From: a bacterium
GTDB taxonomy: Bacteria; Patescibacteriota; Patescibacteriia; JBAXGH01
Direction of reading: 5' to 3'
DNA: 64,000 nucleotides
Assembly: GCA_037139515.1 (NCBI GenBank)
Contig: JBAXGH010000001.1
Coordinates: 16,101-80,100 of the forward strand
The notes under the pieces are model-generated. The model had not been told where the DNA came from. It was given only the letters and a program-made list of their open reading frames with translations, and made no database searches. Made by a program: the position numbers and the translations under genes. This document shows, in pieces, positions 5,810-62,598 of this stretch (positions within the stretch are counted from its first letter, which is position 1; the number at the start of each line of letters is the position of its first letter).

Positions 5810-5888
5810 GAAAGTGTACGGAGCCTATTCGTCGTCAGGCAATCAGCCGTACCTTTGCCTGACGAGCGAATAGGTCCGCACTTTCTGT
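5810..5888. repeat. family-1 palindromic element, copy B (GAAAGTGTACGGAGCCTATTCG...loop AATCAGCCGTACCTTTG...CGAATAGGTCCGCACTTTC)
   Basis: Imperfect inverted repeat with about 32-nt arms, read directly. It lies immediately 3' of the minus-strand PPIase gene. Confidence 0.65.
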
Positions 5889-5904
5889 AGTCCCCCGAGA
5901 AATG

Positions 5905-8906: not shown

Positions 8907-8984
8907 GAAACCTTACGGGATTACGCAGAAGAAATCAATGCGAGTTTCGTCGCGTTGATTTCTTGCTTTATTGATTTATTGTGT

Positions 8985-10691: not shown

Positions 10692-10692
10692 G

Positions 10693-10735
10693 ACATCCCT
10701 AATCCCTAAGCTCTAACCTCTAATCCCTAGCCCCA
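10693..10735. repeat. CTCTAAG/CCCTAAC heptamer-like tandem array
   Basis: CATCCCTAATCCCTAAGCTCTAACCTCTAATCCCTAG. Related arrays occur at 51840 and 58998. Confidence 0.5.
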
Positions 10736-20394: not shown

Positions 20395-22137
20395 TTACCA
20401 GCTCCCTCCCCCTCCGCCACCAAAACCTCCGCCTGAAAATCCGCCCCCGATTCCACTGCCGCCGCTTGAAGCCGATTTTTGAGGTGTTGTCGCAACTGCC
20501 GAATTGAGCGACCGATTAAGATCATGCATCGCCGAATTAAACATCAAATAATCAAAAGCGCCTGGATGTGAACTCTGATACCAATCCTGTGTGCGAATCA
20601 CATCTTTTAGCGCCACCGACCACTTATCCACAACTAAGAAAACCATCGCATAAGGCAAAAACTTCTGAAAAACGTTTTCCGATTCCTGCCACTTCAATCG
20701 ATATTTCTCAGCTCGCGAAAGATATTCCTTGAAACCCATGATTTTTTCGTATTCCCGGGTTCCTGCCTCGGTTCGCTTCGGCATAAAGGTGCCGAATATC
20801 GCGAATATAATCGCCGATATAATCATCGAAATCATCCAGGCGATTGAAATGCCGGAAACAAACCAAATCGCAGCTACAACCAACACGGTCGCAACCACAT
20901 AAAAGAGATTTCTGACGGTTTCCGGATTTCCCACGAACCATTTACGTGAAACCATTTCTTCGTATAAAAACTTCTGCGCTGCCTCTCGCCCAGCCTTTAC
21001 TTCTTTGGCACGCGACTGTAGCTCAGAAATCTCACGCCTCATAGCGCTCCCCATAATGCCCGTGAGCATCGAAGTTTCATGCTGCTTCAAGCCATCAAGC
21101 GGCTTTTCCGTTCTTTCAATCGCAAATGATTTAGATGTTCCAAGAATTCCTTTCTTCTCCGTTTCGATAATCTTCAGGTATCCGCGAACAGCCAAGTCGA
21201 TAATCGTAGCCGATAAGTCCCGGTCATGAACTTTTCCATCTTCAAGTGCACCAACTTCTCCAGGAGTCATCCCCTCCGGCGCCTCAAATTCGGCGACAAT
21301 CGCGAGCGGCTTTGGATCGCGACCATTGCGATACCAATACAGGAACAGAAGAATAAAAATCACGAAAGGCATCGCGACAACCTTATTATCATTAGCAAAC
21401 CAAAACAGACGAGTTAAAATTGACGGCTGTTTGATGCTACCGCTCGGAAAACGTGCCGCGATGGTCAAAAAGTCATTTGCCTCAACTTTCACCACAGCGC
21501 GCCCGTCGATTTCGACCACGGATTTTGTGCAATTAGTTGAAGTCGAGCCGATTTCGCCCGTATAACATGATATTTCCACTTTCGCGGAATCGACGCCAGA
21601 CGGAAGCTTAATCGTAGCAATAGTTTTTTTCGGAATTACCGGCCAACCGCTACCGGTTACGTTCCAATACAGCTCGTCAGTTGCCTTATTTGAGAGCAGA
21701 ACACGGGTAACGTCGTAGGCGATTTCGTATTTCACGACACCTTTCACAAGCTTATTTGCGTCCCCGATTTTGATCACCAAGTCCTCGGACTCACGCGAAG
21801 TTGTATAACCGGTCGGCTCACCATTTGCCGTCACGCTCGCAACTTTTACTTTGATAGAAACGTTATTTCCGGAATCGTTTTTATAATCAACCGGAATCTT
21901 TCGAAAAATTCCGTGACGCCCGACAAAAAATCTAACATCGATGCTTTCTCTGACATGAACCGTGGAATTCGAAAGAACTTCGATATCAGCCGAATATTTT
22001 GATATATCAAAATCATTAATTCCCTCTTCGGTCTGAGCCTGAACAACGATGGGCAAGAAGAGCGAAAGCAGGAGCATGATTCGAGCCGCGATTTTTCGCA
22101 TAGTATTACAGTTAGCGCATGTAGCGTTTATTGGCAT
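20395..22137 (-). CDS. DUF2207-family membrane protein with a Gly-rich C-terminal tail
   Basis: Signal peptide, large extracellular domain, transmembrane segments, then the C-terminal GGGFSGGGFGGGGGGSW typical of DUF2207. Confidence 0.5.
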   Translation of the reverse strand: MPINATCANCNTMRKIAARIMLLLSLFLPIVVQAQTEEGINDFDISKYSADIEVLSNSTVHVRESIDVRFFVGRHGIFRKIPVDYKNDSGNNVSIKVKVASVTANGEPTGYTTSRESEDLVIKIGDANKLVKGVVKYEIAYDVTRVLLSNKATDELYWNVTGSGWPVIPKKTIATIKLPSGVDSAKVEISCYTGEIGSTSTNCTKSVVEIDGRAVVKVEANDFLTIAARFPSGSIKQPSILTRLFWFANDNKVVAMPFVIFILLFLYWYRNGRDPKPLAIVAEFEAPEGMTPGEVGALEDGKVHDRDLSATIIDLAVRGYLKIIETEKKGILGTSKSFAIERTEKPLDGLKQHETSMLTGIMGSAMRREISELQSRAKEVKAGREAAQKFLYEEMVSRKWFVGNPETVRNLFYVVATVLVVAAIWFVSGISIAWMISMIISAIIFAIFGTFMPKRTEAGTREYEKIMGFKEYLSRAEKYRLKWQESENVFQKFLPYAMVFLVVDKWSVALKDVIRTQDWYQSSHPGAFDYLMFNSAMHDLNRSLNSAVATTPQKSASSGGSGIGGGFSGGGFGGGGGGSW

Positions 22138-23209
22138 TATGTTCCTCCAGGGTCTTCGCGTACTTTACCTCACCGTCCGGCGTCGTCAAAAAGTACCAGG
22201 CTTCATTTTTACTCGGTTTCAAAGAAGCTAGAATTGAAGCCATTCCCGGGTTCGAAATCGGACCGAGCGGCAACCCTGGGCTTGTATAAGTGTTATATTC
22301 TGATTCCGATGCGCGATCGGTGGCCGTTGTAAAAGGCGTTTCGCCGTTTTTTTGATTTGCATATTTCACTGTCGAATCACATTGCAGCGCCCAGTTGATT
22401 TCATAACGCCGCCAAAGCAAATCCGAAACCTTGGCGCGATCAATATCGCCATTCACCTCGCGTTCAATCACGCTCGCCATCGTCACGATCTGAAAAACCG
22501 ATTTCTTGCTGTCTTTCGCAAGCCGAACCATATCCGAATCAAACTTCCGCGTAAATTCTTTGAGCAACTTTCTGACAACATCGACCGGCTTCGCGTCGTT
22601 CGCAAAGCGATATGTATCCGGGAAAAGATAACCTTCCAAACTCACATAAACCGGTTTATCTGCAAGAATCGGGAACTCTTTTGCCCAATCAATCGACGGC
22701 GCCATATTCGGAAGCTCGCGATAATCCGTAGCCGGACGCCCGGTGAGCTTCAAAAAATCTTCGCGTTTGCCGATTCCGAGTCTCTCAATTTCGTGCCCGA
22801 TATCTTCAAGCGTCCAGCCTTCAATCACGCGTAAAACTTTTTCGGAAGCCTCGGAGCCGGAAGAAATCAGACTCGCGATTTTTGCTGCCCCGCTGCCAAG
22901 TTCAAGCTTGAAACTTCCGGTTTGAAACCGATCGCCGCCACCGTGTAACTTCAAATAAATGCGAAAAGCTAGTTCGCTTTTCACAATGCCTTTTTTGGCA
23001 AGACCTGCCGCCACAACCCGTGCACTTTCACCCTGACTGATTTCGAAATCAACAAAACTTCCGGTACCACGCGCCAGATAAATCACATATAAATACCAAA
23101 TCGCGAAAATCACCGAAATAGCCAAAGCAAAAACGGTACCAATTTTGACGCCAAAAAATTTGGTTCGAGTTTTCAGGGCCTGATATCCGGGACCAAAATC
23201 TTGAATCAT
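22112..23209 (-). CDS. mltG: endolytic murein transglycosylase MltG (YceG family)
   Basis: N-terminal TM anchor and the EGYLFPDTY motif. Confidence 0.8.
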   Translation of the reverse strand: MIQDFGPGYQALKTRTKFFGVKIGTVFALAISVIFAIWYLYVIYLARGTGSFVDFEISQGESARVVAAGLAKKGIVKSELAFRIYLKLHGGGDRFQTGSFKLELGSGAAKIASLISSGSEASEKVLRVIEGWTLEDIGHEIERLGIGKREDFLKLTGRPATDYRELPNMAPSIDWAKEFPILADKPVYVSLEGYLFPDTYRFANDAKPVDVVRKLLKEFTRKFDSDMVRLAKDSKKSVFQIVTMASVIEREVNGDIDRAKVSDLLWRRYEINWALQCDSTVKYANQKNGETPFTTATDRASESEYNTYTSPGLPLGPISNPGMASILASLKPSKNEAWYFLTTPDGEVKYAKTLEEHNANKRYMR

Positions 23210-23261: not shown

Positions 23262-23365
23262 CGTCATCCCCGAAACTCGAGCACGAGTTATCGGGGACCC
23301 ATGACGAACACTCATACTTGGGTCCCCGATAAAATCTGCTGATTTTTCGGGGATGACGTCTGTAG
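23262..23365. repeat. nested double inverted repeat (outer CGTCATCCCCGAAA/TTTCGGGGATGACG, inner ATCGGGGACCCA/TGGGTCCCCGAT)
   Basis: Read directly. The outer arm shares the GTCATCCCCG core with the family-2 repeats. Confidence 0.5.
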
Positions 23366-23428: not shown

Positions 23429-25003
23429 TTAGATAAGTGGTGCTCCGGTCATTTCAACCGGCTGAGTCAGGCCCATGATTCGGAGCACGGTTGGCGCCAC
23501 ATCCGAAAGCATTCCAACCGGCGGAATCAGAGCCAAATCAGTTACAGGACCGTTCGGACCAAACTGACCCTCATATTGTTTACCTACAATAATCAACGGA
23601 ATCGGATTCGTCGAGTGTTCTTTATCGATATCGCCAGTCTGCAAATTCAAGACCTCTTCGGCGTTGCCGTGGTCGGCGGTAATCAAAACCACGCCACCTT
23701 TTGAAAGTACGGCATCAATCACCTTTCCAAGGCATTCATCAACAACTTTCATGGCCGCAATTGTGGCTTTCAAATTTCCGGTATGCGCAACCATGTCGGG
23801 GTTGGCGTAATTCAGTACGATAAAATCGTATTTTTCTTCACGAATTTCCTTAATCACGCGATCGGTCAGTTCATAAGCCGACATTTCAGGTTTTTGATCG
23901 TAACTTGAAACCTTTGGTGAAGGAATAATCGCGCGGTCTTCGCCGGTAAAAGGATCTTCGCGAGTACCGTTGAAAAAGAAAGTCACGTGCGCGTATTTTT
24001 CCGTTTCCGCGATATGGAGCTGTTTCAAACCGGCTTCCGAAATCACGCGCGCAAGCGGCATGACCACGGTTTGCGGAGGAAAAGCTACGGTAAGCGGAAG
24101 TCCGGCTTCGTATTCCATCATCGTGATAAATTTCAGATTCTTGATTTTTTCGCGCTTGAACCCAGGATCTTCATCAAGCACAAAAGCTCGAGCTAGCTCG
24201 CGCGCCCGGTCCGAACGATAATTCCAAAAAATCACAGCATCACCTTCTTCAACAACAGCGACCGGTTTATCGCCATCCATCATCACGGTCGGCGGGATCT
24301 GTTCATCGTAAACTTCTTTAGCATACGAAGCCTTGAGCGCTTCTATCGGATCAGTCGCCTTTTCACCTTTGCCTTCTGTGATACATCGATAAGCCGCCTC
24401 CACGCGGTCAAAACGATTGTCGCGGTCCATGGCAAAATATCGGCCAGCCATAGAAGCTAGCTTGCCGATTTTAATTTCCTTCATTTTCGCGAGCAACGTG
24501 GCTACAAAATCAACACCGCTATTATAAAGAGAATCTCGACCATCAAGAAAAGCGTGGATGTAAACTTTTGATAAACCCTGACGCTTTGCAAAATCAAGAA
24601 GCGCATGAGCGTGAGTATCCATGCCATGAACTTTTCCGGAAGAAAGCAAACCCATCAAATGCAATTTCCCGCCAGTCTTTTTGACATGATTCGCGGCCTC
24701 AATAAAAGCCGGCATTTCAAAAAACCCTCCGGAGTCAATAGCATGAGCTAATCGCGGCAAAGATTGAAACAAAACTGTGCCGGCACCAGCGGTTAAATGC
24801 CCGACTTCCGAGTTCCCCATCTCGCCCCATGAAAGTCCGACTTCTTCGCCGCTCGCCCTGAGCGTCATCGACGGATATTTTTGGATTAGCTCTTTAAAAA
24901 CCGGCGTATCAGCACGCGAAACGCCATTGCCTTCGGTGTCCGGCGCAACTCCAAGTCCATCACACATGATAAGCACGACTGGCTTTGGTCTTTGTTCTGG
25001 CAT
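23429..25003 (-). CDS. gpmI: 2,3-bisphosphoglycerate-independent phosphoglycerate mutase
   Basis: VVLIMCDGLG...SEVGHLTAGAG N-terminal phosphatase-domain motifs. The start is taken at the internal MPEQRP. Confidence 0.85.
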   Translation of the reverse strand: MPEQRPKPVVLIMCDGLGVAPDTEGNGVSRADTPVFKELIQKYPSMTLRASGEEVGLSWGEMGNSEVGHLTAGAGTVLFQSLPRLAHAIDSGGFFEMPAFIEAANHVKKTGGKLHLMGLLSSGKVHGMDTHAHALLDFAKRQGLSKVYIHAFLDGRDSLYNSGVDFVATLLAKMKEIKIGKLASMAGRYFAMDRDNRFDRVEAAYRCITEGKGEKATDPIEALKASYAKEVYDEQIPPTVMMDGDKPVAVVEEGDAVIFWNYRSDRARELARAFVLDEDPGFKREKIKNLKFITMMEYEAGLPLTVAFPPQTVVMPLARVISEAGLKQLHIAETEKYAHVTFFFNGTREDPFTGEDRAIIPSPKVSSYDQKPEMSAYELTDRVIKEIREEKYDFIVLNYANPDMVAHTGNLKATIAAMKVVDECLGKVIDAVLSKGGVVLITADHGNAEEVLNLQTGDIDKEHSTNPIPLIIVGKQYEGQFGPNGPVTDLALIPPVGMLSDVAPTVLRIMGLTQPVEMTGAPLI

Positions 25004-25046
25004 AATGTGGGTAGTGTAACAAAAAGACACGATTAAGTCTGTTTCA

Positions 25047-26078
25047 TTACGATGACCAACAGATAGGAGTAAAACTCGCGATAAGTTTACTCGCATTTCC
25101 GTGTGAGCACAGCCCTAAATACGAAGTTGTTCTTTCTTTAGAAGATTCTTCTAGTAATCTTCGCATCATTCGTTTTTTTGTCGCGGTTCGTAGAATCCGA
25201 TGATCCGAAAAATGCACCCAGCCAAGAAAATCAACCCCCGAAGCCAACGTTTCGATAAACACTTTATCAGGGTGCAGCTGCAACTTTAATCGTCGGCACA
25301 AAAAGTCATCAATCACAGGTAGTAGACATTCAAGATATTGTTTTTCGTGATGCAAAAATACAAAGTCATCCGCATAACGCAGATAATACTTTACCCGTAA
25401 TTCGTGTTTTACAAATTGATCAAATTCATTCATGTACGCATTCGCGAGCAGCTGCGAGGTCAAATTCCCGAGCGGCAGACCAATTCCCCCGTCATTCCCG
25501 CGAAGGCGGGAATCCATTTTAGGGTAACTTGTCACAATAGTCCTAAGGAGATCAAAGATTCGTTCATCAAAAATATAGCGACGTAAAATTCCAAGTAATG
25601 TATTTTGATCAATCGAGGCAAAGAATTTTCGTATATCGCATTTTAAAACCCAACAGGTTCGACGATGATTCAAACTCACTTTCCGCGCAAAATCACGAAA
25701 ACGATTCATGGCCGCGTGCGTTCCCTTCCAATTTCGGCAAGAAAAAGAATCCGCAACAAAGCGCTGGTCGAAAAACGTATACAATTTGCGATATAATGCG
25801 TGATGTAAAACCCGGTCACGAACCGAAGCCTTGTGAATATGACGCCGCTTTGGGTCGTTCACGAAAAAGTCTTGATATATTCCATGACGATATTTAGCTA
25901 CACTTAGTTCCTCATGAAGTGCTAAAATATTGTCTACAAGATGCCGTTCATATTCCAACACATCAGGCTTGCCGTGTTTCCCACAAGAAAATTCGCGCCA
26001 TGCTTCAAATAAATTTTCTAACGAAATAATTTCTTCAAAACTACGTTTAAAGCACCCAATATGGTTACCCCCCCCCAA
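25047..26078 (-). CDS. diversity-generating retroelement (DGR) reverse transcriptase
   Basis: RT motifs including YLRYADDFV (YxDD) and the DGR-specific GLPLGNLTSQ (I/LGxxxSQ in place of the group II QGxxxSP). TR and VR lie 0.4-1.0 kb upstream on the same strand. The start is ambiguous: it is called as TTG inside a G9 run. Confidence 0.85.
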   Translation of the reverse strand: MGGGNHIGCFKRSFEEIISLENLFEAWREFSCGKHGKPDVLEYERHLVDNILALHEELSVAKYRHGIYQDFFVNDPKRRHIHKASVRDRVLHHALYRKLYTFFDQRFVADSFSCRNWKGTHAAMNRFRDFARKVSLNHRRTCWVLKCDIRKFFASIDQNTLLGILRRYIFDERIFDLLRTIVTSYPKMDSRLRGNDGGIGLPLGNLTSQLLANAYMNEFDQFVKHELRVKYYLRYADDFVFLHHEKQYLECLLPVIDDFLCRRLKLQLHPDKVFIETLASGVDFLGWVHFSDHRILRTATKKRMMRRLLEESSKERTTSYLGLCSHGNASKLIASFTPICWSS

Positions 26079-26462: not shown

Positions 26463-26604
26463 TTGCGCACGGCCAGGAACCGATTGTCGGGATCCCACTG
26501 ATTACCGGGATTATCCCAGTTCAGGTTCAACTTACGCTTACCGGAATTCTCGTTCAAATACGGAACCTTACGATTACCGTCTGAATTCACGAAGTCCGAG
26601 CCGA
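26463..26604 (-). repeat. DGR template repeat (TR), 142 bp
   Basis: Matches 27003..27144 except at 20 positions. At 17 of these the TR has A on the minus (sense) strand. TR codons at variable sites are AAT/AAC/AAG/GAT/TAT. Confidence 0.85.
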
Positions 26605-26998: not shown

Positions 26999-27958
26999 TC
27001 ACTTGCGCACGGCCAGGAACCGATTGTCGGGACCCCACTGACTACCGGGAAAGCCCCAACTCAAGCCCAACTCACGCCTACCGGAATTCTCGTTCAAACA
27101 CGGAACCCCACGACCACCGTCAGAATCCACGAAGTCCGAGCCGAGAGCTACGATCCAAGATTTTCTTTGAAGATCTGGTTTAGCCGCACCCAAGGCCAGT
27201 AATTCTTCAAGAGTCGCTGGGCGCAACCCGAGCGCATCCAGGCGATCTTCTATCTGCTTGGTAGTTAAGGTTTCGCCAAAGGCGACGGCGATAACTTCAA
27301 TTTCTGTTTTTTCTTTTTCCTTGCCAAAAATGTTTTTCAGAGCCGTTTTAGCACTTCGTTTCCGAGGAAAGTTCTTTTCATTGATATCGCCGTTTTTCCA
27401 GTCGTACTTCCCGGCCGCGATCATTTGTTCCAAGCTCTGACCATAATCAACTTCAACTTTTTCTTTAATTACTTTTTGATCTGGAAAACGAGTGAAAATA
27501 TTCTCGATATGAAGCTTAAAGATTCCCGGAAAAAGCGGGCCGATATAGGCTTTGATGTCAGGTCTGATTTCTTTCTCGCTTGTCGCGATTTGATCCAGGC
27601 GACAATCTAAAACAATCAGCGCGTCTTCTTTTAGATTGCGAGTTTCACGAATCTTGGCCACTCGCGGGTCGTTACCGCGACCAAAACCTTGAATCGGCGC
27701 TTCGATTTCATACAAGAAGATAAGCTCGTCTTTTGTGAGCAGTTCTTTTCTATTTATCTTTCGTTCGATGGCTGTGACTCGCTTCATGTCTGCGGACTGT
27801 TTCGCGTATTTTTCACCGTTCGGATATTCCTTTAGTTTTTTTCGCGAGCACATCGGCGATATAAGCATCAGTATTCTGGTTCGTACCGATGCCTCGGACT
27901 TCATTAAGATTGCCTTCGACAACATGAAGAGCGGCGCGCGGAATTTTCGGAGTTCCAT
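26999..27958 (-). CDS. DGR target (variable) protein, C-terminal portion carrying the VR
   Basis: The ORF ends 4 nt after the VR. Its N-terminal region overlaps the upstream ORF by 146 nt in another frame. Confidence 0.6.
   Translation of the reverse strand: MELRKFRAPLFMLSKAILMKSEASVRTRILMLISPMCSRKKLKEYPNGEKYAKQSADMKRVTAIERKINRKELLTKDELIFLYEIEAPIQGFGRGNDPRVAKIRETRNLKEDALIVLDCRLDQIATSEKEIRPDIKAYIGPLFPGIFKLHIENIFTRFPDQKVIKEKVEVDYGQSLEQMIAAGKYDWKNGDINEKNFPRKRSAKTALKNIFGKEKEKTEIEVIAVAFGETLTTKQIEDRLDALGLRPATLEELLALGAAKPDLQRKSWIVALGSDFVDSDGGRGVPCLNENSGRRELGLSWGFPGSQWGPDNRFLAVRK
27003..27144 (-). repeat. DGR variable repeat (VR) forming the C-terminus of the target gene
   Basis: VR encodes ...GSDFVDSDGGRGVPCLNENSGRRELGLSWGFPGSQWGPDNRFLAVRK followed by a stop. 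The TR equivalent encodes N/K/Y/D at the variable codons. Confidence 0.85.
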
Positions 27959-31775: not shown

Positions 31776-31901
31776 CATGATAACACAAAAGACGCCTAAT
31801 GCTATTAAGCGTCCTCAGTGTTGTGTTTTTTTGATTTATTGATTTCTTGATTTTTTGTCCCGCGTCCTGTCCCTTAGTTTCTTGATTTATTGATTTCTTA
31901 C

Positions 31902-32729
31902 TTACTCTATCTCGTAAGTTAAAGTAACACTCGAAGAAATATCCTGTGTTCCCGGCTGAATCGTCGGAGCCGGAGCTGCCGATGGCGCCGCACCAAGCAT
32001 CATTTTGTCATAATACATCGGGTATGGTGTCGGGTTATAGCCGCCTTCCGAATAGTTTACGACCTTTCCAAGTTTAAATCCGGCCTGTGAAGCCATGGTC
32101 TGTGCCTTGGTCTTTGCTTTCTCAACCGCCAAAGCACGGGCCTGATCGACATATTTATCCGGGAATTCAACGCTAAACTCTAGGTTTCCAACGCGATTCG
32201 CGCCAATAGAACCAGCGGCCTGAAGCACATCTCCAGCTTTGGATAAATCACGAATCTTGATTTCCAAATCCTGACTAACCGTATAGCCCATAAAAACCTG
32301 GGCATTATTGGTCCAATTATATTTTGGCTGAATGCCGTAGCTCGTCGTCTTTAAATCTTTTTCATCAATTCCCAAAGCCTTCAATCGCCCGAGCAAATCA
32401 TTAAACCGCTGAGTATTCACCTTCTGCGATTCTGCGATTTTGAAACCGTCGATACTCAAACCAACCGAAAGCATGGCGATATCTGGAGAAATCGTGACTT
32501 TATCATCCGCGCTCACGGTCAAAGTGTGACGCTCGAGCGGCAGAACGCCAACTTGCTTTTTTTGCGCATTCTTATAGCCGGCATCAACGAACAACCAGCC
32601 CGTCAAAGCCAACCCAACCATAATCATGATGACCATTTTCCCCATGTGGCGACCGCAATGGCCACCGCATCCCTGTACACCGCCTTCTTTTCCGTCAGTA
32701 CCAACACCGCCGCAGCAGTTCATGCCCAT
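31902..32729 (-). CDS. SIMPL-domain (DUF541) protein, membrane anchored
   Basis: LTVSADDKVTISPDIAMLSVGL...LKALGIDEKDLKTTSYGIQPKY matches SIMPL/26 kDa periplasmic immunogenic protein. The likely start is the internal MGKMVIM. Confidence 0.6.
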   Translation of the reverse strand: MGMNCCGGVGTDGKEGGVQGCGGHCGRHMGKMVIMIMVGLALTGWLFVDAGYKNAQKKQVGVLPLERHTLTVSADDKVTISPDIAMLSVGLSIDGFKIAESQKVNTQRFNDLLGRLKALGIDEKDLKTTSYGIQPKYNWTNNAQVFMGYTVSQDLEIKIRDLSKAGDVLQAAGSIGANRVGNLEFSVEFPDKYVDQARALAVEKAKTKAQTMASQAGFKLGKVVNYSEGGYNPTPYPMYYDKMMLGAAPSAAPAPTIQPGTQDISSSVTLTYEIE

Positions 32730-34497: not shown

Positions 34498-35835
34498 CTA
34501 TTTTGAATCAGGCTTAAGATATACACTAATACCGTGCCTAAAAACCTGCAAAGCATAGCGCATCGGCAAAATCTTCATAAAATAATCCAGGTCGGCTATT
34601 TTTCGAAGATAGTATGCGATGCGACCGCGAATATGCAGCGACCCGACGGTTGCGACGGCATATTTTCCGCCAAGCGTGACCACCGAAGGCCATCTTGTCG
34701 GTAGCTTATATGAAACCAAAGTTTTATTTTTCAAAAGTCGACAGATATTATCAGCCGCATATTTGCCTTCAAGCATGGCTGATTGCGCCAAATACATAAC
34801 CGGCTTCTTGGTTTCCTCCTGAATCAAAGACGTGGCGTCGCCGAGTGCAAAAACATCGCTCTCGCCTTTCACTAGAAATTCCGATGAAATCACGATGCGC
34901 CCAGATTGATCTAACTCAAAAGGAAGCGTGCCGACAACTTTTGACGGCTTGATGCCGGCAGTCCACAAAACCATATTCGCTTCGATTAATCGCTCGGTTT
35001 TATCAACCGCGTCTTCCGAAGCTGGCCCGACTACGACACCGGATTCATTCACTTCCAGGACCTTATTCTGAACCAAAACTTCAACGCCAAGAGCGCGCAA
35101 TCTTTCCTCGGCCCACCGACGCACCGTCATATCGTTTCCCGAAAGAAGAGTCGCGCCGGAATCGATAATCGTAATCCGCGCGTGACGGTGACGAATTATT
35201 TCCTGTTTACGAAGCTCTTCAAAAAATACGGCGAATTCAGCCGCTACTTCAACTCCGGTCGCACCGCCGCCACAAATCGCAACACTCACAACTTCTTCCG
35301 TACCGCTCAAATGACTGGCGATGAATTTATTCAGGCGCTTTCGAACATTCAAACCATTTTCAATAGTTTTTAGCTTGAACGCATATTCGTTCACGCCTTT
35401 GATTTCAAAATCCTTTGATTCACTCCCGAGTGCCACAACCAAATAATCATAATCGAGCAACTCGCCGTCTTTTAAGAAAACCTGTTTTGATGTTTTATCG
35501 ACACCGGTAATTTCCGCCCGCTTAAAACTCAGATATTTTTTTCCGCTGAGTTTTGAAAAATCATTTAAACTTACACAGACGCTTTCACGCAGCTCATAAA
35601 CGCACCCTTTGGAAGAATCACTAAGACAGCCACTCGCGATTTGATAAAGCAGCGGCGTGTAAAGATGAGCCGGATTTTTGTCGACAAGCACAATTTCGCA
35701 ATCGTCGCCACACTTCTTCGCAAGCTTTAAAGCACAAGCGAGACCGCCAAAACCGGCGCCCAGAATCACAACCCGCGGTTTTTTATTTTCGTTTTTCATG
35801 AAAGGACAGCCGTCATCATGATTAAATGTTGTCAC
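34498..35835 (-). CDS. ndh: type II NADH dehydrogenase-like FAD-dependent pyridine nucleotide-disulfide oxidoreductase
   Basis: Two dinucleotide-binding motifs (VVILGAGFGGLA and VAICGGGATGVE) plus LLYQIASG. Confidence 0.7.
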   Translation of the reverse strand: MTTFNHDDGCPFMKNENKKPRVVILGAGFGGLACALKLAKKCGDDCEIVLVDKNPAHLYTPLLYQIASGCLSDSSKGCVYELRESVCVSLNDFSKLSGKKYLSFKRAEITGVDKTSKQVFLKDGELLDYDYLVVALGSESKDFEIKGVNEYAFKLKTIENGLNVRKRLNKFIASHLSGTEEVVSVAICGGGATGVEVAAEFAVFFEELRKQEIIRHRHARITIIDSGATLLSGNDMTVRRWAEERLRALGVEVLVQNKVLEVNESGVVVGPASEDAVDKTERLIEANMVLWTAGIKPSKVVGTLPFELDQSGRIVISSEFLVKGESDVFALGDATSLIQEETKKPVMYLAQSAMLEGKYAADNICRLLKNKTLVSYKLPTRWPSVVTLGGKYAVATVGSLHIRGRIAYYLRKIADLDYFMKILPMRYALQVFRHGISVYLKPDSK

Positions 35836-35869
35836 CCCGGGCCCTCATCGTCATCCCAAAGTTTTCTAG

Positions 35870-35893
35870 TTGTCATCCCGAAGCCGAGGGATC
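35870..35893. repeat. family-2(ii) 24-nt hairpin repeat TTGTCATCCCGAAGCCGAGGGATC
   Basis: Identical or near-identical copies at 42505, 62575 (reverse complement) and 39918 (reverse complement, inside queA). Confidence 0.7.
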
Positions 35894-35902
35894 TAGTAAT
35901 GT

Positions 35903-36910
35903 TTATTTAAGCTTTTTTGCAAATTCAAGAGCCATATCGGCGAGCCGGCAAGAATATCCCCACTCGTTATCATACCAAGCCACAACTTTCACAAAATCCC
36001 CACCAACAACCTTAGTCAAACCTAAATCAACGATAGAAGATGCCGGATTTTTTATAAAATCAGAAGAAACGAGCGGCTCTTCGGTGACTTCCAAAATCCC
36101 ATTCCAACGCGAAGTCTTGCTCATCGATTTAAACAAATCGTTGATTTCTTTTTCAGTCGTATGCTTTCGAAGCAAGAAGGTAAAATCCGCGAGCGAAACC
36201 ACACTCGTGGGCACACGAATCGAAAGCCCGTCAAACAAGTCTTTTAATTCTGGAATCGCCTCCGATACCGCAATCGCCGCACCGGTTGAAGTCGGCACCA
36301 TATTCGCGGCCGCTGCACGCGCTCGACGTAAATCCTTATGCGGACCGTCCTGCAAGTTTTGATCAGCGGTATATGAATGAATCGTCGTCATCAAAGCGCG
36401 TTTCACCCCGAAATGCTCGTGCATGATGGCGGCGACCGGCGCGATGCAGTTCGTCGTACAAGAGGCATTGTTTATCACCTTGTACTGCTTGCCGAGCTTC
36501 GAGTGATTCACACCCAAAACGTAGGTCGGCACAACGCCACCCTTAGCCGGCGCGCTGATTATAACGCCCTTCGCACCAGCCGTGATGTGCTGCGAGGCGC
36601 CTTCTTCGGAAGTAAATCGCCCGGTACATTCCAAAACGATATCGATTTTTTCCGCTTTCCAAGGCAATTTCGTCGGCTCTTTTTCGGCGTAAACCCGAAT
36701 TTTCTTGCCGCCGACAATCAAAGAATCCTTCGTGGCTTCAACTTTCTGATCATAAGCGCCGTAATTCGTATCATGACGCAATAAATGCGCAAGCGTCGCC
36801 GGATCAGTCAAATCGTTAACCGCGACAACCTCAAATCCCTTTTTCAAAAAACCAGCTTTCAAAACGTTGCGCCCGATGCGCCCAAACCCGTTGATGGCAA
36901 TTCGTGGCAT
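35903..36910 (-). CDS. gap: glyceraldehyde-3-phosphate dehydrogenase
   Basis: INGFGRIGR N-terminus and the ASCTTNC active-site motif. Confidence 0.9.
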   Translation of the reverse strand: MPRIAINGFGRIGRNVLKAGFLKKGFEVVAVNDLTDPATLAHLLRHDTNYGAYDQKVEATKDSLIVGGKKIRVYAEKEPTKLPWKAEKIDIVLECTGRFTSEEGASQHITAGAKGVIISAPAKGGVVPTYVLGVNHSKLGKQYKVINNASCTTNCIAPVAAIMHEHFGVKRALMTTIHSYTADQNLQDGPHKDLRRARAAAANMVPTSTGAAIAVSEAIPELKDLFDGLSIRVPTSVVSLADFTFLLRKHTTEKEINDLFKSMSKTSRWNGILEVTEEPLVSSDFIKNPASSIVDLGLTKVVGGDFVKVVAWYDNEWGYSCRLADMALEFAKKLK

Positions 36911-36955
36911 AAATTCAATAAATCAAAAAATCAATAAAACAAGAAATCAAAAGAC
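36911..36955 (-). promoter_or_regulatory. gap promoter (-10 TATAAT) and UUGAUUU-repeat leader with no SD
   Basis: The minus strand reads GGTATAATGTCTTTTGATTTCTTGTTTTATTGATTTTTTGATTTATTGAATTT followed by ATG. Confidence 0.5.
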
Positions 36956-37030: not shown

Positions 37031-37110
37031 GCGATATTTTGGCCGAAGTGTGCGACGAGCAATCAGCCGTACCTTTGCTCGTCGCAGCACTCGGCAAAAT
37101 ATTGTCGTAT
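37031..37110. repeat. family-1 palindromic element, copy C (loop AATCAGCCGTACCTTTG)
   Basis: Arms GATATTTTGGCCGAAGTGTGCGACGAGC and GCTCGTCGCAGCACTCGGCAAAATATTGTC. It lies between the tsf stop and the gap start. An overlapping + ORF (37029..37583) is spurious. Confidence 0.65.
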
Positions 37111-39694: not shown

Positions 39695-40747
39695 TTACCG
39701 TATAAACATCGCGTCGCCAAAGCTGAAAAAACGATATTTGAGTTCAATCGCTTCTTCGTAAGCGCGCATGATATTTTCGCGACCGGCGAGCGCGGAAACG
39801 AGCGCCAATAATGTCGACTTTGGCAAATGAAAATTCGTAATCAAACCGTCGATTATTTTAAATTCAAAACCCGGCGTGATGAAAATATTCACATCACCGG
39901 AGAAAGCTGTGATACAAGATCCCTCGGCTTCGGGATGACAGCACTGGCCGAGATGACAACGCGCGGCAACGCCCTCGAGTGCACGAGTCGTCGTCGTGCC
40001 AACCGCAATTACGCGACGACCTTCACGTTTCGCGAGATTAATCTTTTCTGTAGTTTCTTTTGAAATCTCAACCCACTCTTCATGCATCGGATGATTGGAT
40101 AAATCATCAACTTTGATTGGCTGAAAAGTACCGAGTCCGACGTGAAGCGTGATACTCGCGAACTCAATCCCCTGCTTTTTCAATTCTTCGATTAACCGCG
40201 GCGTAAAATGAAAGGCCGCCGTCGGTGCCGCAACCGAGCCGGTTTCGCGCGCAAAAATCGTTTGATAACCCTCCAGCTTTTCCGGCGCCCGCTCGATATA
40301 TGGCGGAACCGGAATCTCACCGTGCGCGTTCGCAAAATCAATCAGCTCGGAATCTGAAATCGATGGTTTCACAATCGCGGTGCCGTCTTCCGGCAAAGCT
40401 AAAACCGAAAGCGACACATCAAAACCCAAATCGATCACCGAGCCGAGTTTTAACTTCTTTCGCGGCTTCACAAGCGTCACCCAAGAATCGCCATGCGGGC
40501 GCACTAAAAAAATCTCAAGTTTCTTTCCGTCCACAGTACCGTGCAAACGAGCGCGAAAGACCTTGGTATCGTTCACAACAAGCAAGTCTCCAGCGCGCAA
40601 AAACTTGCCGATTTCAGCAAAAATTCGATGCTCAAAAGCCCCGGTTTTCTTATCTAAAACCAGTAAACGTGAAGAATCCGGCGGCTCGAGTCTGGTCTGC
40701 GCGATGCGCTCCGGCGGCAAATTATAGTCAAAATCGCTGGTTTTCAT
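39695..40747 (-). CDS. queA: S-adenosylmethionine:tRNA ribosyltransferase-isomerase
   Basis: MKTSDFDYNLPPERIAQ start plus LVVNDTKV and TNFHLPKSTLLALVSA motifs. A family-2(ii) repeat lies in frame (encoding CHPEAEGS). Confidence 0.9.
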   Translation of the reverse strand: MKTSDFDYNLPPERIAQTRLEPPDSSRLLVLDKKTGAFEHRIFAEIGKFLRAGDLLVVNDTKVFRARLHGTVDGKKLEIFLVRPHGDSWVTLVKPRKKLKLGSVIDLGFDVSLSVLALPEDGTAIVKPSISDSELIDFANAHGEIPVPPYIERAPEKLEGYQTIFARETGSVAAPTAAFHFTPRLIEELKKQGIEFASITLHVGLGTFQPIKVDDLSNHPMHEEWVEISKETTEKINLAKREGRRVIAVGTTTTRALEGVAARCHLGQCCHPEAEGSCITAFSGDVNIFITPGFEFKIIDGLITNFHLPKSTLLALVSALAGRENIMRAYEEAIELKYRFFSFGDAMFIR

Positions 40748-40817
40748 GATTTGTGCGTGGATTGACGGCTTAGAACCCCCATGCTAACCTACCGCCATAT
40801 TTTTAGACAATCCCTTC

Positions 40818-40842
40818 GTCATGTTGAGCACAGCGAAACATC
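40818..40842. repeat. family-3 repeat GTCATGTTGAGCACAGCGAAACATC
   Basis: An inverted copy (GTCATGTTGAGCGCAGCGAAACATC on the minus strand) lies at 42540..42564. The two bracket rpmE and prfA. Confidence 0.6.
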
Positions 40843-40887
40843 ATGAACATGATCCTTCGCTACGCTCAGGATGACAACAAAAACACT

Positions 40888-41166
40888 ATGCAGAAAGAAA
40901 TCCACCCAATCATGAACGCCGGCATCAAAGTTCTCTGCGCCTGTGGCAACACTTTCGCGACCGACTCAACTATCAAAGAAATCCGTACAGAATTGTGTTC
41001 TGCTTGCCACCCTTTCTATACCGGCAAACAGAAGCTCGTCGATACGGCTCGCCGCGTCGAAAAGCTCGCCGGTCGTTTCACCGCCACGAAGTCTGTGGTC
41101 GGCACCCGCGGCAACAAGAAGGAACGCCGTGCGAAGCGCGACGATTCGAAGAAGGATTCAAAATAG
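40888..41166 (+). CDS. rpmE: 50S ribosomal protein L31 with a Lys-rich C-terminal extension
   Basis: MQKEIHP...CACGN...[12 protein letters not shown] zinc-ribbon motifs. Confidence 0.85.
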
Positions 41167-42491: not shown

Positions 42492-42573
42492 GGTATTACC
42501 CCGATTGTCATCCCGAAGCCGAGGGATCTTGACATACTAGATGTTTCGCTGCGCTCAACATGACACAAAGGAC

Positions 42574-44623: not shown

Positions 44624-44702
44624 AGAAAGTGTACGAGGCCCATACTTCGACGAGCTATCAGCCGTACCTTAGCTCGTCGAGAGTATGGGCTCGCACTTTC
44701 TG
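44624..44702. repeat. family-1 palindromic element, copy D
   Basis: GAAAGTGTACGAGGCCCATACTTCGACGAGC-TATCAGCCGTACCTT-AGCTCGTCGAGAGTATGGGCTCGCACTTTC. It lies immediately 3' of rplY. Confidence 0.65.
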
Positions 44703-44705
44703 TAA

Positions 44706-46786: not shown

Positions 46787-51153
<4,367 letters not shown>

Positions 51154-51190: not shown

Positions 51191-51270
51191 CCGTCATTCC
51201 CGAAATTTGAGCACAAATTGTCGGGAATCCATTTTCTTCAAATAGACTCCCGCCTTCGCGGGAATGACGG
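51191..51270. repeat. family-2(i) repeats: variant copy with a 20-nt palindromic insert, plus an inverted canonical copy GTCATTCCCGCGAAGGCGGGAGTC
   Basis: Other copies at 25491..25518 (inside the RT CDS) and 52842..52874. Confidence 0.65.
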
Positions 51271-51839: not shown

Positions 51840-51910
51840 AGAGATTAGAGCTTAGGGTTTAGAGATTAGTGACATCCCTAACCTCTAAGCTCTAACCTCT
51901 AAGTTCTACC
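51840..51910. repeat. palindromic array of CTCTAAG/CTCTAAC-like heptamers upstream of secE
   Basis: GAGATTAGAGCTTAGGGTTTAGAGATTAG-tgacatc-CCTAACCTCTAAGCTCTAACCTCTAAG. Confidence 0.55.
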
Positions 51911-51914
51911 CCAT

Positions 51915-52142: not shown

Positions 52143-52688
52143 ATGCCTAAGCAAACAAGTAATTACGGCCGTCGCTGGTATGCCATCCATACCTACTCCG
52201 GCTACGAAGAGAACGTCGAAGACAACCTTCGCAAGCGTATCGACTCGATGGACAAAGAGAAAGAAATTTTCAACATTCTGATTCCGAAAGAAAAGAAAAT
52301 CAAAATCAAGAACGGCAAACGTCGCGTGGTTGAGGAAAAAATCTTCCCGGGCTATGTCTTGGTTGAAATGATCGTGACGGATGATTCCTGGTACGTTGTG
52401 CGCAATACCCCAAACGTGACCGGTTTCATCGGCACAGGTACGACGCCGACTCCCGTTTCGGAAGACGAAATCAAGGCGCTTCAGTCACGCATGGGCGTCA
52501 ATGAGCCGCAATTCAAACTTGATGTTACGGTTGATTCTCCGGTTCGCATTTCCGACGGCCCATTCAAAGGCTTCGAAGGAAAGGTTTCGGAAATCGACGA
52601 AGCTCGCGGCAAAGTCAAGGTGTTGGTCAATATGTTCGGTCGCGAAACTCCAATCGAACTCGACTTCTTGCAGGTTAAGAAGATATAG
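52143..52688 (+). CDS. nusG: transcription termination/antitermination factor NusG
   Basis: RRWYAIHTYSGYE NGN start and the C-terminal KOW motif GPFKGFEGKV. Confidence 0.9.
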   Translation: MPKQTSNYGRRWYAIHTYSGYEENVEDNLRKRIDSMDKEKEIFNILIPKEKKIKIKNGKRRVVEEKIFPGYVLVEMIVTDDSWYVVRNTPNVTGFIGTGTTPTPVSEDEIKALQSRMGVNEPQFKLDVTVDSPVRISDGPFKGFEGKVSEIDEARGKVKVLVNMFGRETPIELDFLQVKKI

Positions 52689-52830: not shown

Positions 52831-52934
52831 TTCGAACCCCCATCGTCATTCCCGCGAAGGCAGGAATCCATTCTAGTCCCAGTTTCGCGCGAAAATGAAT
52901 TGCCTGCCGAAAAAGGGGCCCCTTTCGTAATGGA

Positions 52935-53125: not shown

Positions 53126-53237
53126 CACGGGCTTAAAACAAAGGCGGCATCCACCGCCACTTCTCTTCTCTGGAATCGTCTGGGTCGGCCAATGCGTTAC
53201 CTCATTGCCCACACCCGTACTAATTCCAAAACTCAGT

Positions 53238-53663
53238 ATGGCCAAGAAAATCAAGGCCCTAGTCAAGCTCCAGATTCCGGCAGGCGCAGCTAACCCAGCT
53301 CCTCCAGTCGGTCCGGCTCTCGGTCAGCACGGTGTCAACATTCAGGATTTCTGTCAGAAGTTCAATGCCGCAACCCAGGCCATGCGCGGTGATACGGTTC
53401 CGGTCATCATCACGATCTACGATGACCGCTCGTTCACCTTCATCATGAAGACGCCTCCGGCCGCCGATCTTATCAAAAAGGCCATTGGCCTCGCGAAAGG
53501 ATCCGGCAAGCCGCAGTCGGAAAAGGTTGGCAAAATCACGATGGCTCAGATTCGCGCCATCGCTGAAAAGAAAATGCCAGACATGAATTGCCGAACGGTT
53601 GATGCCGCAGCTCGCTGTATTGCCGGTACCGCAAAGAACATGGGAGTTGAAATAGTTGGGTAG
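53238..53663 (+). CDS. rplK: 50S ribosomal protein L11
   Basis: [35 protein letters not shown]. Confidence 0.95.
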
Positions 53664-53671
53664 GTTCAAGA

Positions 53672-53760
53672 AATCAAAAAATCAAGAAAACGAGAAATCA
53701 AGGAACGCTGCCCGCGCCCTTGATTTTTTGATTTCTTGATTTTTTACCAATACCGGGCGG
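53672..53760. terminator. 19-nt perfect inverted repeat of AATCAAGA units enclosing a GC hairpin; candidate terminator after rplK (no rplA follows)
   Basis: AAGAAATCAAAAAATCAAG ... CAAGGaacgctgcccgcgCCCTTG ... CTTGATTTTTTGATTTCTT. Confidence 0.45.
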
Positions 53761-56482: not shown

Positions 56483-56559
56483 GAAAGTGTACGAAGCCTA
56501 TTCGTCGCTGGGCTATGGCTCCCCTCTAGCCCAGCGAGCGAATAGGTTCGCACTTTCTG
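56483..56559. repeat. family-1 palindromic element, copy E (arms conserved, loop differs)
   Basis: GAAAGTGTACGAAGCCTATTCGTCGCTGGGCTA-tggctcccctc-TAGCCCAGCGAGCGAATAGGTTCGCACTTTC. It lies immediately 3' of pheT. Confidence 0.65.
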
Positions 56560-56582
56560 TTGCTGAGCGAGAAAAAAGAAAG

Positions 56583-58997: not shown

Positions 58998-59072
58998 CGC
59001 AGAGCAAGAGCTTAGGGCTTAAAGCTTAGTGATATCTCTAAGCTCTAATCTCTAAACTCTAAGCTCTAATCC
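58998..59072. repeat. palindromic array of CTCTAAG-like heptamers
   Basis: AGAGCTTAGGGCTTAAAGCTTAG-tgatat-CTCTAAGCTCTAATCTCTAAACTCTAAGCTCTAATCCC. Confidence 0.55.
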
Positions 59073-61642: not shown

Positions 61643-62527
61643 TTAAAGTACTGCCACGAAACGGAATGCGAAGCAGTCGTTCGAGCGCGACGGACGATAG
61701 CTGTCGACAAGCGCAAGGCCACCGAACTCACGGTTACCGACGAGGAGCCGAAAACCCGAGTCGTAACGATTATCACACCACTCCCAGGAGTATGTGCTCC
61801 CAAGATCCGGCAGATCCATCCCGCGACTCGCGCGCAGCTCGTTCATGACGTTCGCGAACAGGTTGTACTGCTCCGCTGTCATGTGGCGGAACGCGCCGGC
61901 TGTGAGGTGAAACTCGCGGTCGAGCTTCGGGTAATGCGTCTCGACGCAGTCATTCCAACTCACGCCGAACCGCGTCTTCAGACCCAGGATCTCGGTGATC
62001 TGATCCTTGTACGCGGCCTCGTCATCCCAGTTGAGCTTCGGGGTCGTATCCACGATACCCCAGAATCCTTCGATCGGCTTGCGCTCGATCTCGGATTCGT
62101 CGGTGTACTGGCCCCACTTGGGCTTCACAAAGCTGTTCGGGTAATCCGCCTCCGTGACCGACGGGAAGTACCACCACATGAGTTGGGGGTACTTTTCGAG
62201 CGCCGCCGCGGTTTCCGCGCTCACCTCCATGAGTGGCGGAACCACGATTCCCTTGCCCGGAAAAAGCTCGTCGTACAACTCCTGGAAGAACTCCTGCGGC
62301 CCGGCAAGCTTCACGCCACCCTTGGTCTTCCGGGCAATCAACGCCTGGATTTCGGCGAAAAGGCCTTCTTTAGCATCAATCTCAAGGAGTTGCCTCATCT
62401 GCCCAGTCGACATCTTCTTTTTCTTCGCTTTCACGAGAACCTCCAAACCATCCGCGGGAGCACAAGTGACAGCGCCGTATGCGCCAGCATTTTGGTTACC
62501 CTTTGGACAGCCGACACATAATCGCAT
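61643..62527 (-). CDS. hypothetical protein, GC-rich (~58-60%) island
   Basis: The antisense ORF 61526..62521 is Arg/His-rich junk. There is a hairpin terminator at 61596..61625. No family recognised. The likely start is the internal MSTGQ. Confidence 0.45.
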   Translation of the reverse strand: MRLCVGCPKGNQNAGAYGAVTCAPADGLEVLVKAKKKKMSTGQMRQLLEIDAKEGLFAEIQALIARKTKGGVKLAGPQEFFQELYDELFPGKGIVVPPLMEVSAETAAALEKYPQLMWWYFPSVTEADYPNSFVKPKWGQYTDESEIERKPIEGFWGIVDTTPKLNWDDEAAYKDQITEILGLKTRFGVSWNDCVETHYPKLDREFHLTAGAFRHMTAEQYNLFANVMNELRASRGMDLPDLGSTYSWEWCDNRYDSGFRLLVGNREFGGLALVDSYRPSRSNDCFAFRFVAVL

Positions 62528-62574
62528 ATTTTAGCGAAGATGTCAATATACAATAACAAAATCAAGGGAATCAA

Positions 62575-62598
62575 GACCCCTCGGCTTCGGGATGACAA
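62575..62598. repeat. family-2(ii) hairpin repeat, reverse orientation
   Basis: GACCCCTCGGCTTCGGGATGACAA. Confidence 0.65.

Follow-up and report, generated by a model that had tools for sequence, protein, structure and literature searches.

Tagged hairpin repeats, probably linked to Ssn-like nucleases, in a Patescibacteria genome, with in-frame copies in queA and a retroelement reverse transcriptase gene

We analyzed a 64,000-nt stretch of a Patescibacteria metagenome-assembled genome (MAG; assembly GCA_037139515.1, contig JBAXGH010000001.1, positions 16,101 to 80,100), referred to as the window, and found it to contain at least 13 short dispersed repeats of four sequence types, two of which are situated in frame inside protein-coding genes. 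The hosts of these two copies are queA and the reverse transcriptase (RT) gene of a diversity-generating retroelement (DGR). We consider it probable that the repeats belong to the CGTC/TGTC-tagged superfamily of repetitive extragenic palindromes (REPs), which comprises dRS3/NTS in Neisseria, RPE-4 and RPE-6 in Rickettsia and the SRMs, and that they are tagged hairpins linked to Ssn nucleases, which multiply in the genome and whose in-frame copies are tolerated in protein loops. A preliminary description of the same DNA had proposed that these in-frame copies are lineage-specific insertions of a dispersed repeat, a proposal that is supported both by the loop lengths of the orthologues and by the identity of the repeats at the DNA level.

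All copies are built alike, from an unpaired (C/T)GTC head followed by a palindrome with AT at both ends, a C and a short tail. The following elements were identified, with the 24-mer TTGTCATCCCGAAGCCGAGGGATC and the 25-mer GTCATTCCCGCGAAGGCGGGAATCC serving as references for types A and B, respectively.

35870-35895, plus strand: A1, type A; 24-mer at 35870-35893, exact; intergenic, between the minus-strand open reading frames (ORFs) 34498-35835 and 35903-36910.
39916-39941, minus strand: A2, type A; 24-mer at 39918-39941, one mismatch; in frame in queA, on the sense strand.
42505-42530, plus strand: A3, type A; 24-mer at 42505-42528, exact; prfA stop codon 14 nt upstream.
62573-62598, minus strand: A4, GGGGTC variant of type A; 24-mer at 62575-62598, one mismatch; intergenic, between the minus-strand ORFs 61643-62527 and 62642-63739.
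25490-25517, plus strand: B1, type B (CGTCATTCCCGCGAAGGCGGGAATCCAT); 25-mer at 25491-25515, exact; antisense and in frame inside the DGR RT gene.
51242-51269, minus strand: B2, type B; 25-mer at 51244-51268, two mismatches; inverted partner of C3 at a gap of 10 nt.
52844-52871, plus strand: B3, type B; 25-mer at 52845-52869, one mismatch, in the stem; in a 516-nt gap between the plus-strand ORFs 52143-52688 and 53205-53663, which on reading by eye appear NusG-like and L11-like, respectively.
23262-23301, plus strand: C1, type C; CGTC head, imperfect stem of 13 bp, AGCA loop, CCA tail; left half of a heads-outward pair between the minus-strand ORFs 22112-23209 and 23429-25096.
23319-23358, minus strand: C2, type C; inverted partner of C1 at a gap of 17 nt.
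51192-51231, plus strand: C3, type C (CGTCATTCCCGAAATTTGAGCACAAATTGTCGGGAATCCA); long stem, AGCA loop, CCA tail; gyrB stop codon 39 nt upstream.
40817-40844, plus strand: D1, type D (CGTCATGTTGAGCACAGCGAAACATCAT); upstream of rpmE.
40849-40876, minus strand: type D-like element (TGTCATCCTGAGCGTAGCGAAGGATCAT); inverted partner of D1 at a gap of 4 nt; overlaps the start of the rpmE ORF as called, and is probably part of the rpmE 5′ untranslated region.
42538-42565, minus strand: D2, type D; inverted partner of A3 at a gap of 7 nt; overlaps the prmC N-terminus as called (MFRCAQHD).

Each of the 13 elements starts with CGTC or TGTC and each stem starts with AT. A scan for GTC-AT...AT-C returned nine strict elements, whereas 0.49 were expected and shuffled sequences yielded two at most; the other four elements deviate once each, by one base in the right arm. 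Eight elements make up four heads-outward pairs, whose members lie 4-17 nt apart; two pairs are of mixed type (A3 with D2, and C3 with B2). No copy is followed by a T-run, and neither Rfam at the gathering threshold nor a tRNA scan returned a match in the window.

Type A takes the form TTGTCATCCCGAAGCCGAGGGATCTT, with a 5-bp stem, an 8-nt loop and a CTT or CTA tail in its four copies. The 24-mer had been reported between genes at 35870, 42505 and 62575 and inside queA, and all four sites were recovered with at most one mismatch; none of 100 shuffled windows contained it, and no occurrence is expected by chance. Over 118 distinct type A copies from all sources, the sequence information is confined to gTT-core-TTGaa and drops to background level 4-8 nt beyond the core, with random flanks and no visible target-site duplication. 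The unit is thus about 30 nt long and does not belong to a larger element. A miniature inverted-repeat transposable element, which would have terminal inverted repeats of 15-30 bp around 70-300 bp and a target-site duplication, was considered for type A and rejected on account of the ~30-nt unit, the random flanks and the missing duplication. A terminator was likewise ruled out for type A by its weak hairpin and the absent T-run.

Type B, present at three sites, has the form CGTCATTCCCGCGAAGGCGGGAATCCA with an 8-bp stem, a GAAG loop and a CCA tail, and folds at -8.9 kcal/mol (z -3.9). Folding thereby bore out the 8-bp stem and GAAG loop proposed in the preliminary description. Type A is palindromic only weakly. 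The sites listed there for this motif could be placed at 25491, at 51244 (given as 51247) and at 52845 (given as 52842); the one given at about 51191 is instead C3, a long-stem relative belonging to type C. Type C elements are 40 nt long (three copies) with a stem of 13-15 bp, an AGCA loop and a CCA tail, and fold at -11.6 to -13.7 kcal/mol (C1, -13.7, z -6.2; C3, -11.6, z -5.7). The inner stems of C1 and C2 differ by compensatory changes, AATC/GATT in the former and CTCG/CGAG in the latter. Related GTCATCCCCG arms had also been described, and at 23262-23358 they correspond to this long-stem pair, while the sites at 40818 and 42540 lack such arms and represent type D. The latter has the form (C/T)GTCATGTTGAGCRCAGCGAAACATC plus a variant, written out as the consensus (C/T)GTCATGTTGAGC(A/G)CAGCGAAACATC, and shares only head and tail with the other types. 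Its three copies end in CAT or CTA and have a 5-bp stem around an 11-nt interior, with a fold of -2.2 kcal/mol that is no better than that of shuffled sequences.

The longest ORFs of rpmE and prmC start inside type D elements (in the regions 40843-40890 and 42541-42573). The true starts are probably located downstream, at MQKEIHP... in rpmE and at MIIRSLL... in prmC, and false N-termini derived from repeats are likely to be common in the annotations of such genomes.

The first of the two intragenic copies resides in the following gene, next to a remnant of a further head.

39695-40747, minus strand: queA, host of A2; ORF of 350 aa; PF02547, E 1e-125; PDB 1vky, E 1e-100.
39942-39958, minus strand: head-only remnant TGTCATCTCGGCCAGTG, directly 5′ of A2, in frame in queA, encoding CHLGQ.

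A2 is read as TGT CAT CCC GAA GCC GAG GGA TCT and encodes CHPEAEGS, the peptide previously read from this copy, which comprises residues 270-277 of QueA. The CHLGQ encoded by the remnant is similar to the head of the insert found in the orthologue P0093 (CHLELAE...). In an alignment of 45 sequences, with 44 close homologues, the segment from TTTxRALEG to (V/I)NxFIxPG is 43 aa long in the QueA of the window versus mostly 26-34 aa elsewhere, and the extra residues fall into an alignment gap relative to the structures from T. maritima and B. subtilis. In an AlphaFold 2 (AF2) model with a mean predicted local distance difference test score (pLDDT) of 85.7, residues 264-281 form a coil between a helix (251-264) and a strand (282-286), with pLDDT values below 50 at residues 267-272. 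We further surveyed this loop in 120 listed homologues, the anchors of which could be located in 119. By these anchors, 49 of the 119 possess a loop of at least 24 residues, and many of the long loops contain repeat-like peptides, e.g. CHPEPFDFAQGKLREGS, NPPLERGE and LCHPEEAKPTKDL...EIPHFVRDD. The homologues with a named affiliation are Patescibacteria (Uhrbacteria, Magasanikbacteria). At the DNA level, two long-loop homologues (L025 and L026) carry a TGTCAT head at the same codon as in the window, two codons after GTT GCC, and the loop of each contains a heads-outward pair of other tagged hairpins.

The second intragenic copy lies in the retroelement.

25047-26078, minus strand: DGR RT gene, host of B1; RVT_1, E 9e-21; LGNLTSQ motif; homologues are RTs of the Candidate Phyla Radiation (CPR).

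B1 runs antisense to this gene and encodes MDSRLRGNDG, RT residues 188-197, directly before GLPLGNLTSQ, in agreement with the SRLRGNDG that had been noted before the LGNLTSQ motif. Of 114 homologues, 79 have 6-9 aa in the stretch preceding GLPLGNLTSQ, which measures 14 aa here. The AF2 model places the insert in a coil between the helices 172-183 and 206-227, with block pLDDT values of 77 and 64 that are below those of the surroundings. Six homologues carry a type-B-derived (D/Y)(S/Y)R(L/V/F)RGND at the same site, and for the one whose DNA was checked (L027) the underlying sequence is a decayed copy of the type B motif. On a rough neighbour-joining tree, the insert-bearing RTs fall into two adjacent clades, mixed with RTs that lack the insert. 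The template repeat (TR, 26463-26604) and the variable repeat (VR, 27003-27144; at the 3′ end of the minus-strand ORF 26999-27958) are 142 nt long and differ at 20 positions, 17 of which are TR adenines (14 A-to-G, 3 A-to-T). This bias towards template adenines indicates that the retroelement has been active despite the repeat insert in its RT. The preliminary description had spoken of essential genes, which is not tenable as queA and the DGR RT are not essential.

Alternatively, the matches inside the two genes might not be insertions at all, but represent coding sequence of ancestral or convergent origin or result from an assembly artefact. The loops of QueA and RT vary in length anyway, and a few homologues display RLRGND at the same RT site, as such a scenario would allow. 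The intragenic copies are, however, identical to intergenic ones at 23 of 24 (queA) and 25 of 25 (RT) DNA positions, while the host proteins share at most 64% identity with their nearest relatives. Near-identical repeat DNA in genes for proteins this divergent renders ancestral or convergent coding sequence not credible. Moreover, the alignments of QueA and RT orthologues reveal that most of them lack the extra residues, and an orthologue with the same residues but without the repeat, which would have spoken against insertion, was not seen: the RLRGND homologue L027 retains the decayed DNA motif as well. An artefact is further disfavored by a QueA protein identical to that of the window, which NCBI lists as a MAG protein and which four independent sources have on record, the next best homologue being 64% identical. 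We thus regard this alternative as largely refuted and its probability as very small.

In-frame copies are not confined to these two genes. Types A and B are free of stop codons in five of six frames, the sixth being closed because the head creates a TGA on the reverse strand. Among 120 exact type A copies, 22 are located in frames that are open for at least 60 codons on each side, and all five open frames are used. Hosts elsewhere that were confirmed by Pfam include LeuRS (two copies, in different frames), IleRS, ValRS, UvrD and Dus, and furthermore an ABC-F ATPase, a Mur ligase and a glycosyltransferase. In many CPR homologues of QueA and RT, the corresponding loops are occupied by other peptides that look like repeats. 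These same-site inserts are compatible both with old inserts that were later replaced or lost and with several insertions into a single site.

With 23 loci among 185,579 species genomes, the exact 22-nt type A core is rare, yet it crosses phyla: it was detected in a Harrisonbacteria MAG (11 copies), in several MAGs each of Saccharibacteria and Acidobacteriaceae, and in one Ruminococcus MAG. In JGI metagenomes, 64 stretches contain it, almost all of them from a single sample, and as many as 7 copies occur within 13 kb. Viral contigs contained no match to type A and more than 120 matches to type B, a lower bound that is uninformative about the host. In the Acidobacteriaceae MAGs (L003-L005, L012, L013, L015, L019, L020) the core is embedded in conserved flanks, CCCTCCCCTTT-core-TGCAGTT, and, in contrast to the CPR copies, apparently belongs to a longer repeat unit.

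The link to nucleases derives from the Neisseria NTS, an oriented 28-nt sequence (CGTCATTCCCGCGMAVGCGGGAATCYRG) that is bound as single-stranded DNA (ssDNA) by SsnA, a GIY-YIG nuclease of 94 aa (Chenal et al. 2025, PMC11893778). Cleavage takes place a few nucleotides 5′ of the NTS head, with the C after the palindrome being most important for binding and the three bases before it (GTC) for cutting. Genes for SsnA frequently have their own motif on either side, and the Neisseria Ssn system restricts transformation by NTS-bearing DNA (PMC11893778). B1 agrees with the NTS at 27 of 28 positions, with the mismatch at the last base, and B2 and B3 differ from it by two to three mismatches. We searched for GIY-YIG proteins using a hand-written consensus as query and obtained a large family of PF01541 proteins of about 95 aa, with identities of up to 86% and including Patescibacteria members. 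The genes of two of these, P0345 (Taylorbacteria) and P0278, encode 94-98 aa and are bracketed heads-outward by the type B motif TGTCATTCCCGCGAARGCGGGAATCCA (L028-L037). At one of the type B loci a frameshifted second GIY-YIG copy, about 1 kb from the intact one, is bracketed likewise. P0345 is 60.7% identical to the product of an N. gonorrhoeae gene that lies among nine NTS copies within 1.4 kb, which connects the proteins from CPR with the Ssn family. The motif-bracketed CPR GIY-YIG proteins are hence, as judged by sequence, predicted Ssn-like nucleases. No NCBIfam family scored above its cut-off for these proteins, and a PDB search returned only distant GIY-YIG structures of the UPF0213 type.

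Three further GIY-YIG genes were found in the type A metagenome loci: an intact one with type A on both sides (L044), one with an in-frame stop codon and again type A on both sides (L098), and one bracketed by type D (L083). Nucleases beside type B, be they from CPR, proteobacterial-like or from Neisseria, share RNGTLY and KKWxRxWKL, whereas the three beside types A and D differ from them at these positions. Albeit derived from a small sample, this suggests that repeat types and nuclease variants may have matched specificities. The loci L034 (3297-3702) and L035 (3297-3546) contain the same P0278 gene and neighbours and differ by a 156-bp motif block downstream, which looks like a recent gain or loss. 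The motif-bracketed genes of L028-L033 (Taylorbacteria) and L034-L037 are situated between genes resembling those for conjugation or a type IV secretion system (T4SS), i.e. PrgI, TraC-like and TraG / T4SS-DNA_transf.

Clues as to how the copies spread come from their arrangement. Of the 120 type A copies, 38 have a second GTCAT head on their own strand no more than 60 nt upstream, compared to a background of 6.8%, and 23 have an inverted partner downstream (background 5.9%). The other two arrangements of heads are near background, with 8 and 12 of 120. Head-only remnants directly 5′ of intact copies were seen in queA (39942-39958), beside the CPR ssn genes and at the following site.

35849-35862, plus strand: head-only remnant CGTCATCCCAAAGT, 8 nt upstream of A1.

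This last remnant fits the general excess of a second upstream head on the same strand. The excess and the 5′ remnants together indicate that new copies tend to pile up where Ssn would cut a resident motif. We infer that the repeats are selfish and propagate, and propose that the mobile unit is a sequence of about 25-40 nt, consisting of the unpaired (C/T)GTC head, a hairpin with outer A-T and T-A pairs, the C and a short tail. The four types of the window would be motifs recognized by Ssn, each matched to its own Ssn variant, and would spread across the genome both singly and in heads-outward pairs. Copying may be coupled to the cut that Ssn makes immediately 5′ of resident heads. Copies that happen to arrive in frame in a permissive surface loop would persist as 7-10 extra residues (7 in RT; about 9-15 in QueA with the head-only remnant), since types A and B are short and open in five of six frames. 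The inserted peptides themselves are most likely without function. A more far-reaching version is speculative and, in our judgement, more likely wrong than right: the Ssn-linked hairpins of Patescibacteria might form an active, diversifying mobile system that lays copies beside resident heads, has hot-spots at fixed codons (queA, DGR RT, aminoacyl-tRNA synthetases), co-evolves its repeat types with the nuclease variants and is a major, hitherto unrecognised source of lineage-specific protein insertions in CPR.

Several observations weigh against an Ssn-linked, recently multiplying repeat. The SRM search pattern HGTCWYN(0-2)YYVSBRHN(0-5)WNVSBRGN(0-2)RNCYNB (PMC11893778) matches only B1 and B2, i.e. 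two of 13 elements with 0.22 expected, which makes it unsuitable for counting these repeats; types A, C and D, the queA copy included, do not match, so that the assignment of type A to the SRMs is based on the GTC and C bases and the bracketed GIY-YIG genes. The type A hairpin (-2.8 kcal/mol, z -0.8) is no better than shuffled sequences, and its stem and loop lengths are outside those of the CGTC families. A regex search and tblastn with five family members returned no GIY-YIG gene in the window, and none was found in the 23 GTDB loci with type A. Ssn membership is argued from the 61% match to Neisseria and the flanking architecture and not from CDD cd10448, and the role shown for Ssn in Neisseria is restriction of transforming DNA, not mobilisation of the motif. 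Finally, the TGTCAT head at one codon in three QueA lineages and the clustering of insert-bearing RTs on the rough tree would both be compatible with old inserts.

The repeats might instead be non-autonomous elements moved by another enzyme, such as a RAYT-like tyrosine transposase of the IS200/IS605 type or a hairpin-targeting recombinase of the IS110 type, with Ssn riding along or using the repeats as landmarks. A tag plus hairpin and inverted pairs mirror the GTAG REPs and REPINs moved by RAYTs (PMC3733652), no mechanism is known by which a nuclease alone copies DNA, and the window is devoid of an Ssn gene. On the other hand, transposases adjoining CGTC repeats have been sought and none found (PMC3733652), and GIY-YIG is the only gene repeatedly bracketed in the loci, for three of the four types, although no transposase profile search of the window was made. 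We therefore hold mobilisation by another enzyme to be unlikely. Alternatively, the repeats might serve the host as regulatory or structural elements, e.g. as hairpins at transcript ends, mRNA stabilisers or protein-binding sites. Intergenic copies do occur near gene ends (14 nt after prfA, 39 nt after gyrB), the compensatory inner-stem changes of type C imply that the hairpin is preserved, REPs have been proposed as RNA elements in the literature, and Neisseria NTS copies modulate transformation (PMC11893778). Such a role is nevertheless difficult to reconcile with types A and D, which barely fold, with the missing T-runs and with copies on either strand relative to the neighbouring genes and in five reading frames of unrelated proteins. 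The same 22-mer moreover occurs in several phyla, as would be expected of a mobile element rather than of a local regulator, and we accordingly consider a host function quite unlikely. Ssn-linked hairpins that multiply and are tolerated in loops remain the explanation we favor.

The window contains further repeats and features. A second family consists of hairpins of about 80 nt at 5809-5889, 44624-44704 and 56493-56567 (-48 to -49 kcal/mol, z -7.5 to -9.2) with shorter relatives at 4237-4275 and 37048-37086. Their outer stem is conserved (AGAAAGUGCG...CGUACACUUUCU) and the inner stem displays compensatory changes; every copy lies between minus-strand genes, Rfam gave no match, and an unrelated metagenome contig (L063) matches one of the copies with 97% identity over 67 nt. 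A/T-rich repeats of the sequence TTGATTTATTGATTTCTTGATTT are found beside several gene starts (8955-8988, 31823-31907, 36899-36950, 53650-53745). In type-A-rich metagenome contigs (L043, L090), LeuRS and ValRS contain the peptide (G)QEINKSINQ(E/K)I, which by hand translation corresponds to the reverse complement of the TTGATTTATTGATTTCTTGATTT repeat and, if so, would represent a second, unrelated in-frame repeat. Palindromic CTCTAAGCTCTAA / TTAGAGCTTAGGG blocks occur in three copies (10692-10733, 51847-51912, 59007-59072). The plus-strand GyrB ORF 47695-51153 (1152 aa) carries an apparent intein, GDSAGG|...VFVHN|SAKQGR, as read from the translation, and the plus-strand ORF 1116-1547 has a tandem 15-nt periodicity at 1293-1521, encoding a PGY(V/T)x pentapeptide-repeat protein.

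These findings widen the range of a pairing of repeat and nuclease first described in 2025, which now includes the Candidate Phyla Radiation. Three types, A, C and D, are missed by the published search pattern, and two of these, A and D, appear to have nuclease variants of their own, which are candidates for new site-specific ssDNA nucleases. For annotation, odd CPR peptides such as CHPEAEGS, SRLRGNDG, VIPKPRDL, RSLGFGMT and similar ones can be explained as derived from repeats, and false N-termini can be flagged, as in rpmE and prmC. The loops of QueA and DGR RT, which are repeatedly occupied in CPR homologues, constitute a natural map of permissive sites, and their recurrent occupation allows targeted insertion to be tested against filtering by selection.

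When compared to the NTS and SRMs, the repeats share the essential bases, as all four types keep the GTC before and the C after the palindrome (nine of 13 elements strictly), and the NTS-ssnA-NTS architecture, as types A, B and D bracket GIY-YIG genes of 94-98 aa in other contigs. They differ in their host, a Patescibacteria MAG, with neither 'Patescibacteria' nor 'Candidate Phyla' appearing in the main text of PMC11893778, and in their in-frame intragenic copies, which are not discussed there; the variants described here are known from sequence alone.

The CGTC-tagged REPs are dispersed, mainly intergenic repeats with a CGTC, TGTC or CCTC tag, a stem of 8-9 bp that starts with AT (first pairs A-T and T-A), a loop of 4-5 nt, a CCA tail and frequent pairing, and intragenic copies have been reported (Di Nocera, De Gregorio and Rocco 2013, PMC3733652). 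Neisseria dRS3 and Rickettsia RPE-6 are assigned to CGTC-1, and RPE-4 to CGTC-4 (PMC3733652). Our repeats resemble them in the tag, the stem starting with AT, the inverted pairs, mixed ones included, and the mostly intergenic location, with some genic copies that add few residues, and type B with its 8-bp stem, GAAG loop and CCA tail fits CGTC-1 fully. Types A (5 bp, 8-nt loop) and D (5 bp, 11-nt interior), in contrast, are outside the ranges of the four published families, type C combines a 4-nt loop with a much longer stem of 13-15 bp, and the CCA tail of types B and C is replaced by CTT/CTA in type A and by CAT/CTA in type D. The published survey covered five phyla and predates CPR genomes (PMC3733652).

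With the GTAG REPs and REPINs, the repeats have in common a short unpaired tag followed by a hairpin, inverted pairs, a high copy number and a small gene bracketed by repeats. Here, however, the tag is CGTC/TGTC instead of GTAG, and the bracketed gene encodes a GIY-YIG nuclease instead of an HUH tyrosine transposase (RAYT). Literature searches on such repeats in CPR and on the encoded peptides returned nothing specific.

Rickettsia palindromic elements (RPEs) were reportedly described by Ogata et al. in 2000 as dispersed palindromic repeats that lie in frame in conserved genes, apparently tolerated in surface regions, with orthologues lacking them. The classic RPE-1 exceeds 100 bp and encodes 30-50 residues. 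In-frame copies in conserved genes at permissive sites, without counterpart in orthologues, are likewise found here, but the inserts, with 7 extra residues in RT and about 9-15 in QueA, are far shorter than RPE-1, and the host is a free-living or episymbiotic CPR bacterium instead of an intracellular alphaproteobacterium. The likeness to RPEs drawn in the preliminary description proved to be more than an analogy, since RPE-6 belongs to CGTC-1, which type B fits (PMC3733652); RPE-6 and type B would thereby be placed in one family by the published classification.

Taken together, the repeats are not a new kind of element but members of the CGTC-tagged REP/SRM family in a phylum where it has not been described before, and in-frame copies are known from Rickettsia and others. 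What is new are the variants of types A, C and D outside the published pattern and the recurrent occupation of the QueA and DGR RT loops, along with what appear to be cognate nucleases for types A and D.

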